IMG/VR virus record: IMGVR_UViG_3300025138_000035 | Location: 622 to 64,621 of that record | DNA: 64,000 nucleotides | Reading direction: 5' to 3' (one strand) | DNA from: a virus | In this document: positions 13,612-21,489 of the stretch, one piece after another | Layout of the letters: every line of letters begins with the position of its first letter | Numbering within the stretch: position 1 is the stretch's first letter | Program-made: the position numbers and the translations under genes | Notes under the pieces: generated by a model | What the model was told of the DNA's origin: nothing | What the model saw: the letters and a program-made list of their open reading frames with translations, nothing else | Databases searched by the model: none

Positions 13612-16600
13612 ATGGCAACATCTAACAAAGTATTTGTATCTCCGGGTGTTTATACATCAGAAAGAGATTTAAGTTTTGTGGCACAAAGTGTAGGAGTCAC
13701 AACTTTAGGGTTAGTAGGTGAAACAATTTCGGGACCAGCATTCGAGCCGATTTTCATAACTAACTTTGACGAGTTTCAATCCTATTTCGGTGGTACAAAT
13801 CCAACTAAATTCGTAAATACTCAGATACCTAAGTATGAGGCGGCTTACATAGCTAAATCATATCTACAACAATCAAATCAATTGTTTGTTACTAGAGTAC
13901 TTGGTCTATCAGGGTATGACGCAGGACCTTCATGGTCAATAACAACTATCGGTAACTTAGATAGTTCAGGAACAACCGCTACGGGGGTACTTGGAGCATT
14001 TAATATTACATTCACCGGAGTTTCAGGAACATCAACAAGTGTTGAAGTGACAAATTACAGTTCACTTCCAGCTTCAATTCAAGGTGTGATAACAAATCCA
14101 TATACTACGTATACTGGTGGTCAATCATCAATCCTTTCAGATATGGAAGGTTATTTCTATTCAGAAATAGTAAACAACGCAACTTCAGGTCAAACATCTT
14201 ATTTTTGGGGAGCGGTGAGTGCTTCTACATTTGACAGTACTACAGCTTCAACGGCTAATCAAACGGGTGCACTTGCAGCAATTAACACTAACGTTTTAAG
14301 TGTTGAGGATATTCGTTTTGAAAGTATAGACTTGACGGACTCAGTAAATGACCCATGGTATTATGCATTATTTACTGAATCTAATGACGTTTATAACGGT
14401 ACTGGGTTTGGTTTAGGTTTAACGACTATGAATAATGTTGGTTTATCTTTCACAGGTACCGCGGCGGTTTTTGTAACTAATTATAGTGGTACACCATATA
14501 ATGATTATCATGATGTGGTAGTAGCTACTTTACGTTCACGAGGTATTGACACATATACTACTGATGACGGACCAGTATATGAGGTTTCAGGAACAACTGA
14601 CGCAATAATAGACTGTTCAGGGGCTTATTCTGGAATATCCACTAACCCTTTTGATACTTTTGCGATTTCAGCGACAACTGCGGATGGGGATAACTTCTTT
14701 TTCCAAACTTCATTTAATATATCTAATTCAAATTACTTATCAAAAGTATTTGGTAAATCTAATTTTGCTAAACCAAAATCTGAAGTACCTTTATTTGTAG
14801 AAGAAGAATATTATAACTTATTAAACACGGGATATCGATTAGGTCGAGTTCGTGGGTTAAATTGTGAATTCGTTGATTTACCAAGTGCAAGACAAGATTT
14901 AGGTACTAACACTAGTATTGGATGGTATTTAGAACAATATCAAACACCTGAAACACCCTACTTTGTTTCGGAACTAAGAGGTAATCAAGTTTATAACATG
15001 TTTAAAGTATTAACTATTTCTGATGGTAATTCGGCAAACAGAGAGGTAAAAGTATCTATCATGAACATTTCATTTAATAATGGAACGTTTGATGTTGTAG
15101 TACGTGACTTCTTCGATACGGATGCTAATCCTGTAGTTTTAGAGAAATTTACTAACTGTACAATGGATATGAATCAAAATAGTTTTGTAGCTAAGAAGAT
15201 TGGTACTTCTAATGGAGAGTTTGAATTAAGGTCTAGATTTATAATGTTAGAAATGAATGAAGATGCACCTATGGATTCACTACCTTGTGGATTTAGAGGA
15301 TATCAAACAAGACAGTTCTCAGGAGTTAAATCACCATTCTTAGAATATAAAACAAAATACGACACACCAGGTGAAGTTATTTGGAACCCACCATTTGGTG
15401 CGGCTTCGGGTACAGATAATGAAACAAGAAGTTCGGGTGACAGAGTCAGAAGAACTTTCTTAGGTGTTTCTAACACTGCAGGTATAGATGCGGATTTCTT
15501 ATCATATAAAGGAAAACAAAACCCAACAAACTTAGCTACCGCGACGGATTCACAACCATGGGCTTACCTTACTAAAGGTTACCATATGGATTCAGGAGCG
15601 ACTGTTATTACTATTTCTTCTAATTATACTACATCAGGTGAAACCGCTTTTGAGGTTGGTGATGCTAGTTTTGATTCGGAACCAGTTGAAGGTAGTCCAT
15701 ATTTTAGATTAAATTCACGTAAGTTCACTGTCGTTCCATCAGGAGGTTTTGACGGATGGGATATATATCGAGAATATAGAACAAATGGTGATAGATACCA
15801 ATTAGGTGCGGCTGGTTTTAGAAAAGGTGCGGCACCATCAATAACTTACCCAACGGCAACAGGATGGGGGGCATTTAAACAAATTGTTGGACCAGACAAA
15901 TTAACTTGGGCTAATACTGATTATTATGCTTACTTATGGGGTCAATATACTTTTAACAATCCTGAAGCGGTTAACATTAATGTGTTTAGTACACCAGGTA
16001 TTGATTACGTAAATAATTCAAACTTAGTTGAGTCGGCGATTGATATGATTGAACAAGACAGAGCGGATTCTATTTATATATGTACTACACCTGATTATCA
16101 AATGTTTACACCTTCTTTAGGTAGTTTTGATACAGACTTTATTTACCCTGAAGAAGCGGTAGATAATTTAGTTGATACAGGAATTGATTCCAACTATACG
16201 GCAACCTATTACCCGTGGATACTTACAAGAGACACGGTTAATAATACCCAAATTTATCTTCCACCAACAGGTGAAGTTATTAGAAACTTAGCGTTAACGG
16301 ATAACATAGCATTCCCATGGTTCGCATCTGCGGGTTACACAAGAGGTTTAGTTAATTCAGTTAAAGCACGTAAAAAGTTAACACAAGAAGATAGAGATAC
16401 ACTATACCAAGGTAGATTAAACCCAATTGCAACCTTCTCTGATGTTGGTACTGTTATTTGGGGGAACAAAACTTTACAAATTAAAGAATCTGCACTTGAT
16501 AGAATAAACGTTAGAAGATTACTACTACAGGCACGTAAATTAATTTCGGCAGTGGCAGTGAGATTATTGTTCGAACAAAATGACGAACAAGTAAGACAAG

Positions 16601-16809
16601 AATTCTTAGACTCAGTTAACCCTATCTTAGATAGTATTAGAAGAGACAGAGGTTTAATTGACTTTAGAGTTACAGTTTCAGGAACACCTGAAGATTTAGA
16701 CTCTAATACGTTAACAGGTAAAATATACTTGAAACCGACAAGAGCACTTGAATTTATTGATATTGAATTTTTGATAACTCCTACAGGAGCATCTTTTGAA
16801 GATATTTAA
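13612..16809 (+). CDS. Contractile tail sheath protein
   Basis: N-terminal VSPGVYTSERDLS; C-terminal WFASAG..RG, LNPIATF, IWGNKTLQ, LDRINVRRLL, LFEQND. Confidence 0.95.
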   Translation: MATSNKVFVSPGVYTSERDLSFVAQSVGVTTLGLVGETISGPAFEPIFITNFDEFQSYFGGTNPTKFVNTQIPKYEAAYIAKSYLQQSNQLFVTRVLGLSGYDAGPSWSITTIGNLDSSGTTATGVLGAFNITFTGVSGTSTSVEVTNYSSLPASIQGVITNPYTTYTGGQSSILSDMEGYFYSEIVNNATSGQTSYFWGAVSASTFDSTTASTANQTGALAAINTNVLSVEDIRFESIDLTDSVNDPWYYALFTESNDVYNGTGFGLGLTTMNNVGLSFTGTAAVFVTNYSGTPYNDYHDVVVATLRSRGIDTYTTDDGPVYEVSGTTDAIIDCSGAYSGISTNPFDTFAISATTADGDNFFFQTSFNISNSNYLSKVFGKSNFAKPKSEVPLFVEEEYYNLLNTGYRLGRVRGLNCEFVDLPSARQDLGTNTSIGWYLEQYQTPETPYFVSELRGNQVYNMFKVLTISDGNSANREVKVSIMNISFNNGTFDVVVRDFFDTDANPVVLEKFTNCTMDMNQNSFVAKKIGTSNGEFELRSRFIMLEMNEDAPMDSLPCGFRGYQTRQFSGVKSPFLEYKTKYDTPGEVIWNPPFGAASGTDNETRSSGDRVRRTFLGVSNTAGIDADFLSYKGKQNPTNLATATDSQPWAYLTKGYHMDSGATVITISSNYTTSGETAFEVGDASFDSEPVEGSPYFRLNSRKFTVVPSGGFDGWDIYREYRTNGDRYQLGAAGFRKGAAPSITYPTATGWGAFKQIVGPDKLTWANTDYYAYLWGQYTFNNPEAVNINVFSTPGIDYVNNSNLVESAIDMIEQDRADSIYICTTPDYQMFTPSLGSFDTDFIYPEEAVDNLVDTGIDSNYTATYYPWILTRDTVNNTQIYLPPTGEVIRNLALTDNIAFPWFASAGYTRGLVNSVKARKKLTQEDRDTLYQGRLNPIATFSDVGTVIWGNKTLQIKESALDRINVRRLLLQARKLISAVAVRLLFEQNDEQVRQEFLDSVNPILDSIRRDRGLIDFRVTVSGTPEDLDSNTLTGKIYLKPTRALEFIDIEFLITPTGASFEDI

Positions 16810-18006: not shown

Positions 18007-18495
18007 ATGGCAGACTTATTAATGAAAATGCCCGTTCCCTATGAACCAAAAAGGAAGAATCGATTTATACTATCGTTTCCATCATCATTGGGTATTAATT
18101 CTTGGTATGTTGAGTCTACGTCAAGACCTAACATCCAAATCGGGTCAACAGAGATTCCTTTTTTAAACACCTCTACATATGTAGCGGGTAGATTCGTGTG
18201 GAACACGATAAACGTTACATTCCGTGACCCAATTGGACCATCAGCTTCACAAGCGTTAATGGAATGGGTTAGATTACATTCGGAGTCCGTAACAGGACGT
18301 ATGGGGTATGCTGCGGGTTATAAGAAAGATTTAGACTTAGAGATGTTAGACCCAACAGGTGTAGCAGTCGAAAAATGGATTCTACAAGGAACATTTTTAA
18401 CTGATGTTAATTTCGATAGTTTAGGATATAGTGATGACGCGTTAGCGACAATTACGGCGACATTACGTCCTGATAGATGTATTTTGGTATACTAA
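18007..18495 (+). CDS. Tail tube protein (gp19-like)
   Basis: YEPKRKNRF...RP...W..INVTFRDPI...LMEW...GYKKD..L.MLDPTG...EKW.L.G; TATTTATA at 17963-17970. Confidence 0.9.
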   Translation: MADLLMKMPVPYEPKRKNRFILSFPSSLGINSWYVESTSRPNIQIGSTEIPFLNTSTYVAGRFVWNTINVTFRDPIGPSASQALMEWVRLHSESVTGRMGYAAGYKKDLDLEMLDPTGVAVEKWILQGTFLTDVNFDSLGYSDDALATITATLRPDRCILVY

Positions 18496-18589: not shown

Positions 18590-19339
18590 ATGGACCAAGG
18601 AAAACAATACGGACAAGCAAATATGAACTTACCACACGATGTGGTACCATTACCATCGCAAGGTACTTTTTACACTAATAAGAAAAAATCACTTAAAGTC
18701 GGTTATTTAACTGCACAAGATGAGAACTTATTATTATCTAATTCAGGAAGTAAGAACTTAGTGATGACATTACTAAAAAATAAAATTTACGAACCTGATT
18801 TTAATGTTAACGAATTATTAGATGGAGATGCGGAGGCGGTATTAATATTCTTAAGAAATACTGCGTTTGGTTCTGACTATAACTTTGTATTAAAAGACCC
18901 AAAAACAGGTAAAGATTTTGAATCTAAAATTGCTTTAGATGAATTAAATATTGTAAAAGCTAAAATAAAACCTAATGAAAAAGGTTTATTTGAATTTAAT
19001 TTACCAAAAACAAGTGTCAATGTTGTGTGTCGACTTTTAAATATTCAAGACACTAATGAATTATCTGAATTACCTGATTTATACCCTAACGGAGTAACTG
19101 TACCAATTGTTACTAAACGGTTAGAAAAATTAATCGTCTCTATAGATGGAGATGAGAACAGAGAAAAAATATCAACCTTTATAAGTACGCTACCTATTAT
19201 GGATTCAAAATTTATTAGAAACACAATGAAAGATTGTGAACCTAAGTTGGACCTTAATAGAACTACTACAGCCCCGTCAGGAGAAAAAGTGAATATGCGT
19301 ATCACTTTTGGGGCGGAGTTTTTTCGTCCTTTCTTCTAA
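18590..19339 (+). CDS. Baseplate hub/tail assembly chaperone (T4 gp26-like)
   Basis: VPLPSQG.FY, YLTAQDENLL, LL.GD..AVLIFLRNTAFG; the ATG at 18590 is preferred over the TTG at 18554, which lies inside the terminator. Confidence 0.7.
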   Translation: MDQGKQYGQANMNLPHDVVPLPSQGTFYTNKKKSLKVGYLTAQDENLLLSNSGSKNLVMTLLKNKIYEPDFNVNELLDGDAEAVLIFLRNTAFGSDYNFVLKDPKTGKDFESKIALDELNIVKAKIKPNEKGLFEFNLPKTSVNVVCRLLNIQDTNELSELPDLYPNGVTVPIVTKRLEKLIVSIDGDENREKISTFISTLPIMDSKFIRNTMKDCEPKLDLNRTTTAPSGEKVNMRITFGAEFFRPFF

Positions 19340-19352
19340 CTATAGGAAAATT

Positions 19353-19514
19353 ATGCTCGATGAGTTCTATTATCTAAGTAAACATGTTAATATGTCTTAC
19401 TCAGACCTACAATTAATGCCCACCTTTGAGAGAAAGTTTTTTATTGATAAACTTTCAACAGAATTTCAAGAAAAAAACGAACAGATAGAAAAACAACGAC
19501 AGAAATCTAGATAA
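19353..19514 (+). CDS. Short tail assembly chaperone-associated ORF; possibly the +1 frameshift extension of the upstream gene
   Basis: MLDEFYYL...MPTFERKFFI; the frame is open back through the last codons of the upstream gene (from 19308). Confidence 0.65.
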   Translation: MLDEFYYLSKHVNMSYSDLQLMPTFERKFFIDKLSTEFQEKNEQIEKQRQKSR

Positions 19515-19542
19515 ACGATATTTATAATAAAAGATATTTCAT

Positions 19543-21489
19543 ATGTTTATGTTTAAAGATGAGAAAATGGAAGAGGTAACGGGTAATATTGCCAGTAATA
19601 TTAAATTAGCCAATATTTCTCTTCTTACTTTTACTAAAAGTCTTAAAAGTAGTTTAACCGATATAACAGGAGTGATTAACTCCGTTGCGAGTTATAATAC
19701 CTTAGCGGCGAATACCGCTAGAGAGACTATGGGGTCCACAAGGGTTGTTGGTGACGCGATACAAAGGGCGTCCGCCGCCGCCGCAGAAAATACTTTATTA
19801 GTCGGAAAAGGTGTTGAAGATAATATTAAATTATATGGAGCACTAAATGCGTCCATGATGAGATTAACATTTTTCTCTGACAAACAAATTGAGGCGTTTC
19901 AAGTCTTAGGTTTTACTGCTAATATGTCTGCCGCGGAATTGGCTACTATGGCAACTTCATTTGATACATTAGGTTATACGACCGACAAAACATTGGAAAC
20001 GATGGGGGGTATGACAAAACAAGCGAGGTCATATGGTTTAAATGTCTCAGAATTTATGGGTGGTGTTAACAAAAATTTAAAGTTAATGACATCATATAAT
20101 TTTAAAGATGGGGTAGACGGTCTTTCTAATATGGTAGCCCAAGCTCAAGCCTTAAGGATTGATATGGGTACAACCGTTAGTTTAGCCGATAAATTAATGT
20201 CTCCTGAAGCAGCTATTGAGACCGCGGCAGGGTTCCAAATGTTAGGTGGGGCAATTGGTAAACTAGGGGACCCATTCCAATTACTCCACATGGCCCAAAC
20301 GGACATGGAAGGGCTACAAGATAGTCTTGTTCAAATGTCTGCGGCTGCGGTAGTATTTAACGAAGATACAGGAGAATTTGATTTACCTGTTACTGAAATG
20401 TATCGTCTTAGAGAGGCTGCTGATTTAGCGGGAATGGGATACCAAGAGATGACCGAAATGGCTATGATGGCGGCTCAAAAGAATAAGAAATTAGATATAT
20501 TAGGTAGTATTAGTGGTCTAGATAACGACCAAAAAGAATTAATTTCTAATCTTGGTAAGATTAATAAAGACGGTAATATTGATATTACTATGCCTGATGG
20601 AACACTTAGACAAATTGGTCAAGGTTTCAATGATATGACAGCCAATGATTACACTGCATTAGAAAAAGTTGTAGCTAAAGATGCGTTGAATGAACTCGAT
20701 GTCGCTAAAAAATCGATGGGTTATCTTAATGAAATAGCGGCGGCTCAATCGGTTCTAACACAAATGACTAGACTACAATTAGCACAAGGTGACGGTTTTA
20801 CAAATGTGGCGGAAGGTTTAGTAAAGTCTAGTACCAATGTAATTGACTCCCTTAAAGGTGAAAACGATAAAGGTGAAAGAGGTAAAGGAAATCGAGTACA
20901 AGAAACCTTTCAAATACCTGATAAAGTTGTCGAAGCATTTTCTTTGGGATTAAGTCAATTAAAAGTAAGTGAAGAACAGGCCGATGAATTTGCGAATTCG
21001 GCATATGAATTCCTTGACAAAGCATACCAGGCGGCGGCTTTAAAATTTGGAGAATTTGATTTTCAGAAGGAAGTTATAGATAAACTTAAAGGTCTTTTTC
21101 AGGAATCAAGCGCGATAATGTTTGACCGTTCAAACGATACTGAGGCCCAACCTGTTACGGGTGAGAATAATTCAAATGAGACAAATGAAGATGGGGAAGG
21201 GGCAACACCTTACCAAAGAGATAATTTCTCTGTGAATAATTTAAATACTTCAAGTCTTAACATTAATGAACCAACTACAAGTACTATTGCATCCAATTCT
21301 AACCTTAATGTTAGTGGTCAAGTTAATTTAACCGTTGATAATATGCCAACTACTTCGGTTATGACTAAAGAACAATTTGCAACGTACTTAACCAATAATC
21401 CAGACGCAATGGCAGCAATCAGTTCTCAACTACTTAATAAAACGGGAGCGTACGGTGGTTCAGTGGCCGGAGTACAAAGTATGGTATAA
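19543..21489 (+). CDS. Tape measure protein
   Basis: Ala/Met/Gly-rich helical 648 aa directly after the chaperone genes; TATTTATA at 19519-19526. Confidence 0.7.
   Translation: MFMFKDEKMEEVTGNIASNIKLANISLLTFTKSLKSSLTDITGVINSVASYNTLAANTARETMGSTRVVGDAIQRASAAAAENTLLVGKGVEDNIKLYGALNASMMRLTFFSDKQIEAFQVLGFTANMSAAELATMATSFDTLGYTTDKTLETMGGMTKQARSYGLNVSEFMGGVNKNLKLMTSYNFKDGVDGLSNMVAQAQALRIDMGTTVSLADKLMSPEAAIETAAGFQMLGGAIGKLGDPFQLLHMAQTDMEGLQDSLVQMSAAAVVFNEDTGEFDLPVTEMYRLREAADLAGMGYQEMTEMAMMAAQKNKKLDILGSISGLDNDQKELISNLGKINKDGNIDITMPDGTLRQIGQGFNDMTANDYTALEKVVAKDALNELDVAKKSMGYLNEIAAAQSVLTQMTRLQLAQGDGFTNVAEGLVKSSTNVIDSLKGENDKGERGKGNRVQETFQIPDKVVEAFSLGLSQLKVSEEQADEFANSAYEFLDKAYQAAALKFGEFDFQKEVIDKLKGLFQESSAIMFDRSNDTEAQPVTGENNSNETNEDGEGATPYQRDNFSVNNLNTSSLNINEPTTSTIASNSNLNVSGQVNLTVDNMPTTSVMTKEQFATYLTNNPDAMAAISSQLLNKTGAYGGSVAGVQSMV

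Follow-up and report, generated by a model that had tools for sequence, protein, structure and literature searches.

Does a large myovirus obtain two forms of one chaperone from a single gene by letting part of its ribosomes change frame? The question is raised by a pair of overlapping open reading frames (ORFs) in a 64,000-nucleotide (nt) stretch of viral DNA, positions 622 to 64,621 of the IMG/VR virus record IMGVR_UViG_3300025138_000035 (the whole stretch is called here the window, and its own numbering is used throughout). The first of them, ORF1, appears from its family matches to encode a hub-assembly chaperone of the T4 gp26/gp51 family, while the second, referred to as the extension, lies over the end of ORF1 in the +1 frame. 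Tail chaperones made by frameshifting belong to the textbook picture of lambda-like and P2-like phages, and to our knowledge T4-type and related large myoviruses have been assigned nothing equivalent. An initial annotation of the window had proposed a programmed +1 ribosomal frameshift at this junction, and the comparative analysis described here upholds it: the site is invariant, the +1 frame is conserved as coding sequence even where it has no start codon of its own, the layout is present in independent clades, and natural fusions of the two parts exist. The best explanation, and in our judgement a likely one, is that a +1 ribosomal frameshift yields a short and a long chaperone.

The Proposed Slip Site in the Window and Its Relatives

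The 3' end of ORF1 consists, as the initial annotation had read it, of GAG (19316-18), TTT TTT (19319-24), CGT (19325-27), CCT (19328-30), TTC TTC (19331-36), and TAA (19337-39). The +1 frame holds a TGA at 19290-92 and is open from 19293 onward, through the site and up to its stop at 19512-14. Its translation contains SFFVLSSNYRKIMLDEFY, with an ATG at 19353, 14 nt beyond the ORF1 stop, and an AGGA at 19344-47.

A viral contig search with ORF1 provided 80 loci with 50-95% ORF1 identity, and a second, independent search with the extension alone provided 80 more, from at least 482 relatives. In the window's clade, TTT_TTT_CGN together with a +1 ORF of at least 40 codons was found in 57/57 distinct junctions, and TTTTTTCG in 38/38 further distinct junctions from the extension-based search; every clade member carries TTTTTTCG, and TTT TTT is invariant in all 58 distinct relatives. 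A conserved TTT TTY junction, on which the initial annotation had made its proposal depend, is a constant feature of the homologues in the window's clade. Pairwise synonymous diversity, which amounts to 0.4-0.5 along ORF1, falls to 0.00 at TTT TTT, CCT, TTC, and TTC. The only variable base at the site is the third one of the CGN codon (CGT, CGG, CGC, or CGA in the relatives), a position at which substitutions change the +1 residue (V/G/A/D) and leave the 0-frame Arg unchanged. The stretch itself has been found in marine and seawater metagenomes from many studies.

The usual Arg codon of the window is AGA, with 20.4 occurrences per 1000 codons, compared to 4.9 for CGT, 0.2 for CGG, and 0.1 for CGC, and the two rarest of these, CGG and CGC, occupy the position in 15 of the 58 aligned relatives. 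In-frame UUU_CGN occurs twice in 20,341 codons, the shift site included, versus approximately 6.8 occurrences expected. Both frames are open over as little as 38 nt among members of the window's clade and over 20 nt in remoter clades. Because the layout recurs in more than 130 distinct junctions across three clades, it is far beyond chance.

The +1 Layout in Remoter Clades

Streptococcus phage GXN1, Microcystis phage Mel-JY01, and the 484-kb uncultured phage LR756508, whose ORF1 counterparts show 28-29% identity, also have a +1 ORF over the end of the gene that encodes a recognisably homologous peptide. In the Mel-JY01 clade, the +1 extension is present in 63/63 distinct junctions, 57 of which read TTT_TTT_TGG and 31 of which lack an ATG. 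In the LR756508 clade, it is present in 12 of 14, mostly with TTC_TTT_TGG, and the +1 frame becomes open no more than 20 nt ahead of the stop, which brackets the site tightly. Flavobacterium phage immuto combines AGC_TTT_CTT with a +1 ORF, and GXN1 has TTC_TTT_CGT (as a query, the GXN1 protein retrieved one partial relative only). The 0-frame codon after UUU in the other clades is UGG, CUA, or CUU, and an in-frame UUU followed by U or C is the sole feature present in the overlap window of every clade. The initial annotation had invoked re-pairing from UUU to UUC and the UUU_CGU motif of influenza PA-X. Both are in agreement with the literature, according to which +1 shifting in bacteria is especially favoured at UUU_Ynn, and UCC_UUU_CGU is the PA-X +1 site (PMC5009743).

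The T-run also brings to mind transcriptional slippage, in which the RNA polymerase drops one U in the U6 run and a subset of messenger RNAs encodes the fusion. Efficient transcriptional slippage usually needs longer homopolymer runs, which counts against this mechanism here. The run consists of 6 T among members of the window's clade and of 7 T in most of the Mel-JY01 clade, and homopolymer slippage is a known route to the same outcome (PMC5009743); however, in other clades the same layout is built on only T3-T4 (AAC_TTT_CTA, TTC_TTT_CGT, AGC_TTT_CTT, TTC_TTT_TGG). Furthermore, RNA-library contigs of four studies span the junction with the genomic T6 and no indel, which speaks weakly against an edited major transcript, though rare variants do not show in contigs and DNA can be present in RNA libraries. 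Taken with these data, a shift at the level of transcription is quite improbable.

Coding Conservation of the Extension and Its Start Codon

Judged from the alignments, the extension is conserved as a protein from the shift site onward, and its own start is missing in many relatives. The +1 codons 2-10 upstream of the Met position follow the pattern [VGA]-L-S-S-[DNES]-Y-[RK], in which L-S-S is nearly invariant and the R/K column is kept in 52/52 sequences by means of six different codons (AGG, AAG, AAA, AGA, CGG, CGC). This is the coding conservation upstream of Met 19353 that was to be expected from the initial annotation. No +1-frame stop, which the same annotation had named as counter-evidence, lies between the T-run and the Met position in any of more than 130 junctions. 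The codon aligned to Met 19353 is ATG in 30 of 52 sequences and CTG (11), GTG (6), TTG (3), or TTA (2) in the remaining 22, with CTT, GTA, and CTA found in further relatives; 19 of 57 junctions hold no ATG at all from the upstream stop of the +1 frame to 30 nt beyond the ORF1 stop.

These data bear directly on an alternative already raised in the initial annotation, according to which the locus holds two ordinary genes and either independent initiation or termination-reinitiation at ATG 19353 yields a free 53-residue gp51-like protein and no fusion. An ATG that follows the ORF1 stop so closely, lies near an AGGA, and is retained in more than half of the aligned relatives is what this explanation would predict, and small gp51-like genes ("mini-gp51") of phages KVP40 and S-PM2 are annotated with ATG starts. 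In addition, loci L175 (2227 onward) and L181 (2215 onward), from the LR756508 clade, carry the gp51-like module as a free-standing ORF that lies in the other frame, begins with an ATG of its own, and has around 20 additional N-terminal residues. On the other hand, the loss of the Met codon in so many relatives indicates that it is dispensable, the +1 frame is uninterrupted from the T-run to the Met, and the part of it upstream of Met 19353 shows protein conservation and can be aligned to natural in-frame fusions. Moreover, no Shine-Dalgarno (SD) motif was found before any of the 35 window ORFs of at least 100 amino acids (aa), whose upstream regions are A/T-rich. Since none of the 35 window genes has an SD motif, AGGA 19344-47 is not a credible ribosome-binding site, which weakens the proposed alternative start. 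Two ordinary genes are an improbable explanation of this locus. The lack of SD motifs and the A/T-rich upstream regions fit a Bacteroidota-type host, and Flavobacterium phage immuto has the same +1 layout.

An internal start by an SD-ATG pair in the +1 frame (AGGAG, 9 nt, ATG), seen in relatives L024-L044, was discarded: its ATG is a by-product of 0-frame Asn-Val codons and is lacking in the window and most relatives.

Identity of ORF1

The Pfam family PF12322 (T4_baseplate) matches ORF1 with 29.0 bits (gathering cut-off 24.5), over residues 43-257 of the 261-aa reading of the gene, and phrog_150 ("baseplate hub") matches it with 3e-11. The longer reading begins at the TTG 18554 chosen by the ORF finder; the start is most likely ATG 18590, because the alignments of distant relatives begin only there. 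An AlphaFold2 (AF2) model of ORF1, built with 18 relatives as input, reached a predicted local distance difference test (pLDDT) value of 83. In the BFVD database, this model matches predicted structures of gp26-type proteins annotated as baseplate hub subunit or hub assembly chaperone, the best of them being the hub subunit of Bacillus phage SP-15 (3e-18; template modelling score, TM, 0.81), with others from Campylobacter phage CP220, Vibrio phage VH7D, Aeromonas phage 25 (gp26), and many more. ORF1 and T4 gp26 have the C-terminal EFF motif in common. According to these family matches, ORF1 is a T4 gp26/gp51-family hub-assembly chaperone and not a homologue of lambda G by sequence. The initial annotation had spoken of a G/GT-like pair, a description that holds for the layout but not for the protein family.

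A possible kinship with solved tail assembly chaperones was sought at the level of the fold. Foldseek of the ORF1 model against the PDB gave nothing significant (2ob9 at E 0.58). An exhaustive structural alignment with VIA-align placed five small phage or prophage proteins on top, aligned to residues ~127-226, among them 3fgx (Z 5.5), 2ob9 (the HK97 tail assembly chaperone, Z 5.2), and 3klu (B. subtilis YqbN, Z 5.1), with root-mean-square deviations of 3.9-4.3 A over 84-92 residues, all of them below the confidence level of the tool. With Z values too low for proof, the modelled likeness is a lead only.

A search of 1.8 billion cluster representatives with the clade profile yielded 2986 family members (clusters). 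Many of the members among representatives P0014-P0150 are 340-500 aa long, with the gp26-like domain at the C terminus and an extra N-terminal region of 100-190 residues, and in nearly all of them the FF motif is again only a few residues away from the C terminus.

Natural Fusions and Tandem Paralogues

Two family members, P0126 (304 aa) and P0148 (324 aa), do not stop after the EF(F/L) motif but read on in the same frame into a homologue of the extension, with hhalign values of 96% (E 4e-9) and 89.5% (E 2e-6). The alignments begin at extension residues 4 (P0126) and 2 (P0148), that is, upstream of the Met position, and the junction is equal in place and spacing to that postulated for the window (EF-L-GVTP-DYRK versus EF-F-VLSS-NYRK).

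The spacing also helps to judge the direction of the shift. In a -2 ribosomal shift, the tRNA-Phe in the peptidyl (P) site would move back two bases in the U-run and reach the same frame with an extra Phe (..EFFFVLSS..). The U6 run permits perfect re-pairing two bases back, and -2 shifts resembling +1 are known in phage tail chaperone genes (PMC10885494). Nevertheless, the sites that consist of UUU_C only (L003, immuto, GXN1) offer no -2 re-pairing, and the distance from FF to [DN]-Y-[RK] in the natural fusions is that of the +1 product and not that of the -2 product. A backward shift at this site is therefore highly improbable.

P0126 was found in six groundwater contigs, each time after a second PF12322 gene of 273 aa that ends in ..KLFWPNSDID and has no extension. 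L186 (986-2734), and likewise L187-L190, show this tandem arrangement, the first gene encoding the 273-aa protein and the second the 304-aa protein with the fused extension. As an extension-less gene is accompanied by a fused one, these phages encode short and long forms by tandem paralogues. A precedent for the G/GT logic carried out by paralogous genes, as in L186-L190 and, by inference, in T4, has been reported for phage 0305phi8-36, although its chaperone belongs to an unrelated protein family in another phage (PMC2147016).

Relation to T4 gp26 and gp51 and a -1 Version of the Layout

A search with the extension of Synechococcus phage S-H38 retrieved 579 phage records, in every case where a gene annotated as gp26 meets one annotated as gp51, in T4-like cyanophages, KVP40, nt-1, and Aeromonas, Rhizobium, and Sinorhizobium phages. 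For KVP40.0327, GenBank notes a similarity to the C-terminal 40 residues of T4 gp51. The extension profile of the window's clade matches the mini-gp51 profile with 95.8% in hhalign (E 7e-9), and by this profile comparison the extension and the mini-gp51 proteins of T4-like phages are homologues.

In T4 itself, gp26 (residues 1-206) and gp51 (residues 1-201 of 249) both match the whole PF12322 model, the genes being located at L084:7803-8429 on the minus strand (gene 26) and L084:8480-9229 (gene 51). Because both are full-length matches, T4 gp51 is a gp26 paralogue with a 48-aa tail. This tail aligns with the mini-gp51 profile in the expected place, but weakly (hhalign E 1e-3, probability 20%); when the KVP40 mini-gp51 was compared with the tail by pairwise BLASTP, there was no hit, and hhalign of the clade extension profile against whole T4 gp51 gave no match at the tail. 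The tail of T4 gp51 probably corresponds to the extension, and the arrangement suggests that genes 26 and 51 are the two-gene equivalent of the lambda G/GT pair.

Eleven records (L273-L283: S-H38, KVP40, S-PM2, ACG-2014d, S-RIM2, AS-yj, AF3, P-HM1, Ochrobactrum OC, Atu_ph04, and Paraglaciecola GD1) were inspected at the junction; they cover T4-like cyanophages, KVP40, and phages of Aeromonas, Rhizobium, Agrobacterium, Ochrobactrum, and Paraglaciecola. Their gp26 gene ends in T_TTT_TTC_Gnn-stop, or with T_TTT_TTT or T_TTT_TTG, and the gp51-like ORF lies in the -1 frame (for example, L273:2950-3171 and L274:1501-1683). T_TTT_TTC fits the classical X_XXY_YYZ heptamer. In ACG-2014d, AS-yj, and S-H38 there is no Met before the conserved MPWEK motif, and in P-HM1 the -1 frame is open from no more than 10 nt ahead of the stop, a point that coincides exactly with the heptamer. 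From these junctions, many of the 579 records look as though they carry an unannotated -1 programmed frameshift.

GenBank leaves the extension region unannotated in immuto, ACG-2014d, AS-yj, and Atu_ph04 (L272:3030-3141; L276:1517-1703; L279:1520-1686; L282:1217 onward). In the immuto record, 110 nt are unannotated and only the last 36 codons are called; in both S-H38 and immuto only a 36-37-aa remnant from the first internal Met has been called, and truncated calls range overall from 36 to 58 aa. None of the GenBank records inspected contains a joined coding sequence or annotates recoding. Comparison of all these loci indicates that four solutions exist in the family: the +1 layout, the -1 layout, the in-frame fusion, and separate genes.

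RNA around the Proposed Slip Site

The block GCCCCGTCAGGAGAA (19271-85) has a synonymous diversity of 0.09-0.12 and retains rare GC-rich codons. Its GCCCCG (19271-76) can pair, according to RNAalifold, with TGGGGC (19309-14), 5 nt before the U-run. Both flanking pairs of this stem are altered compensatorily in L082, and the stem is broken in L157 and L159, both of which have an intact slip site. AGGAGAAA could also pair with UUUCUUCU (19330-37).

Two other candidate elements were rejected. A hairpin with the slip site in its loop shows no covariation. An SD stimulator of the prfB type could be proposed from GGAG 19315-18, located at the right 3-nt spacing, but the sequence is GCAGAG in 25 of 58 relatives, the element is absent in L157 and L159, and the window genes use no SD.

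Proposed Mechanism

We infer that the shift is ribosomal and in the +1 direction, and of an efficiency at which most ribosomes would stop at TAA 19337 and release the 249-aa short form. In a minority, tRNA-Phe would occupy the second UUU (19322-24) in the P site while the rarely used CGU waits in the aminoacyl (A) site, where a CGN codon may favour the shift. The anticodon of tRNA-Phe is GAA, and a slip of one base forward to UUC would replace a G-U wobble with a G-C pair. With GUC as the next codon, the product would read ..GAEFF followed by VLSSNYRKIMLDE.. (junction GAEFF, then VLSSNYRK), giving a long form of 245 + 62 = 307 aa that would end in the gp51-like module of 62 residues. The predicted tryptic peptide of the junction is ITFGAEFFVLSSNYR for a +1 shift and ITFGAEFFFVLSSNYR for a -2 shift. 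The two forms would be comparable to lambda G and GT or to T4 gp26 and gp51, with a common body and an adaptor tail on a small fraction of the molecules.

Several observations weigh against this mechanism. CGT is only moderately rare, and UUU_Y alone, very common in the AT-rich genome of the window, would not by itself set this site apart. The FF codons encode a protein motif that the family conserves (KEFFELL at the end of T4 gp26), and this accounts for part of the T-richness. Folding brought out no convincing stimulatory RNA structure, the single-sequence fold of 19260-19420 being no better than those of shuffled sequences (z = -1.0). Finally, ATG 19353 is present in the window, where a 53-aa protein with its own initiation may be made alongside the fusion, and the independent ORFs of L175 and L181 imply that the module can work as a separate polypeptide.

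Organization of the Locus

The myovirus tail module of the window comprises, in this order, the genes for sheath, a 283-aa protein, tube, ORF1, the small ORF, a 648-aa protein, and a 1586-aa protein (Table 1). The two overlapping ORFs are consequently placed between the tail tube gene and a putative tape measure ORF, the gene order of the G/GT class.

Table 1. Features of the chaperone locus and its neighbours in the window.
Feature	Position	Strand	Basis or remark
ORF1, gp26/gp51-family hub-assembly chaperone (predicted); short unshifted product, 249 aa	18590..19339	+	PF12322, phrog_150, AF2/BFVD
Proposed shift site UUU_UUU_C	19319..19325	+	P-site tRNA-Phe would move from UUU (19322-24) to UUC (19323-25)
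0-frame A-site codon CGT (Arg), candidate slow codon	19325..19327	+	Codon usage
Overlap window, frames 0 and +1 both open	19293..19339	+	Sequence reading
+1-frame extension, 62 codons and stop, gp51-C-terminal-like module	19326..19514	+	Protein conservation, homology
ATG, possible but dispensable independent start	19353..19355	+	Codon column in relatives
Conserved block GCCCCGTCAGGAGAA (19271-85) and possible stem GCCCCG/TGGGGC, putative stimulator	19271..19314	+	Synonymous diversity, RNAalifold
Tail tube gene (context)	18007..18495	+	phrog_4542 7e-28; weak PF06841 (T4 gp19) match
Tail sheath gene (context)	13612..16809	+	phrog_23 1e-51
648-aa ORF, putative tape measure protein	19543..21489	+	Position only

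The initial annotation had placed the locus directly upstream of the gene for the tape measure. The gene order is as described, while the identity of the 648-aa ORF is positional: it has no family match in Pfam or PHROGs, and BLASTP against the tape measure proteins of immuto and Mel-JY01 was not significant. Annotated or evident tape measure genes hold the equivalent position in immuto, Mel-JY01, and GXN1, and from gene order together with the annotation of the equivalent gene in immuto the 648-aa ORF is regarded as a putative tape measure protein. For the extension and the 648-aa and 1586-aa ORFs, Pfam and PHROGs gave nothing beyond weak hits. No tRNA genes were found in the window. Across the loci compared, identity is 77-99% for the tube protein, as against only 50-95% for the chaperone. 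A TATTTATA motif is located at 19519-19526, between the extension stop and the 648-aa ORF, and no such motif occurs between ORF1 and the extension, a placement that fits ORF1 and the extension as a single translational unit.

Comparison with Known Systems and Significance

The lambda G/GT system (Levin 1993; Xu, Hendrix and Duda 2004, via PMC5009743) resembles this locus in its overlapping ORFs between the tube and presumed tape measure genes, in a slippery run near the end of the first ORF, in a second ORF that is often start-less, and in a short and an extended product on one body. The shift is different, +1 on UUU_Y here and -1 on X_XXY_YYZ in lambda. The body here has 249 aa, belongs to PF12322, and shows no sequence similarity to G, and shows no sequence kinship that would bear on binding. 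In the G/GT class, the tape measure protein is bound by the short form and the tube protein by the extension, and virions contain neither form; the same would apply to this locus by analogy.

ORF1 shares with the T4 system its membership of PF12322 and the C-terminal EFF, and the extension matches the mini-gp51; the difference is that in T4 the short and the long form come from two divergent genes and no recoding is involved. A review of the T4 tail lists gp26 as hub assembly chaperone (PMC3004832). The T4 proteins gp26 and gp51, chaperone and catalyst of hub assembly, are needed for the baseplate hub without being part of it, which is known for T4 only, and have so far been described without a mechanism (PMC3004832). 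With influenza PA-X (UCC_UUU_CGU) and the bacterial UUU_Ynn sites, the locus has in common the P-site codon, the UUU-to-UUC re-pairing, and the lack of an evident strong RNA stimulator (PMC5009743), and the string UUU_CGU_C is present in both the window and GXN1. In contrast to PA-X, translation is bacterial here (probably in Bacteroidota), and the exit-site codon is UUU.

Forward (+1) frameshifts in tail chaperone genes are known in actinobacteriophages and in the haloarchaeal myovirus HSTV-2 (PMC10885494, PMC5009743), in another chaperone family and other phage lineages, and those cases are already annotated, unlike the recoding in PF12322 in the GenBank records inspected. Frameshifted tail chaperones, +1 cases included, are thus already known, and the interest of the present case lies in the gp26/gp51 family, which would carry the recoding. 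A full-text literature search found no description of recoding in gp26/gp51 genes, though most subscription journals lie outside its coverage and an earlier publication is possible.

On balance, we favour, with less assurance than we give to the frameshift itself, the view that the PF12322 gp26/gp51 proteins are the T4-superfamily counterpart of lambda G/GT, and that this family requires both a short and a tail-extended form, made in four interchangeable ways. These would be a +1 shift at UUU_Y (in this phage, immuto, Mel-JY01, and several hundred uncultured myoviruses), a -1 shift at U_UUU_UUY (in T4-like cyanophages, KVP40, and Aeromonas and Rhizobium phages), an extension fused in frame next to a paralogue that lacks one, and the two separate genes 26 and 51 of T4. 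If this is true, an unannotated recoding event would be added to several hundred GenBank phage genomes, and in practical terms a +1 or -1 recoding site would be missing from the annotation of several hundred sequenced myoviruses. A single protein family with a conserved recoding site, +1 or -1 depending on the lineage, that attaches a gp51-like tail to a gp26-like body would link the hub-assembly proteins of T4 to the logic of G and GT.

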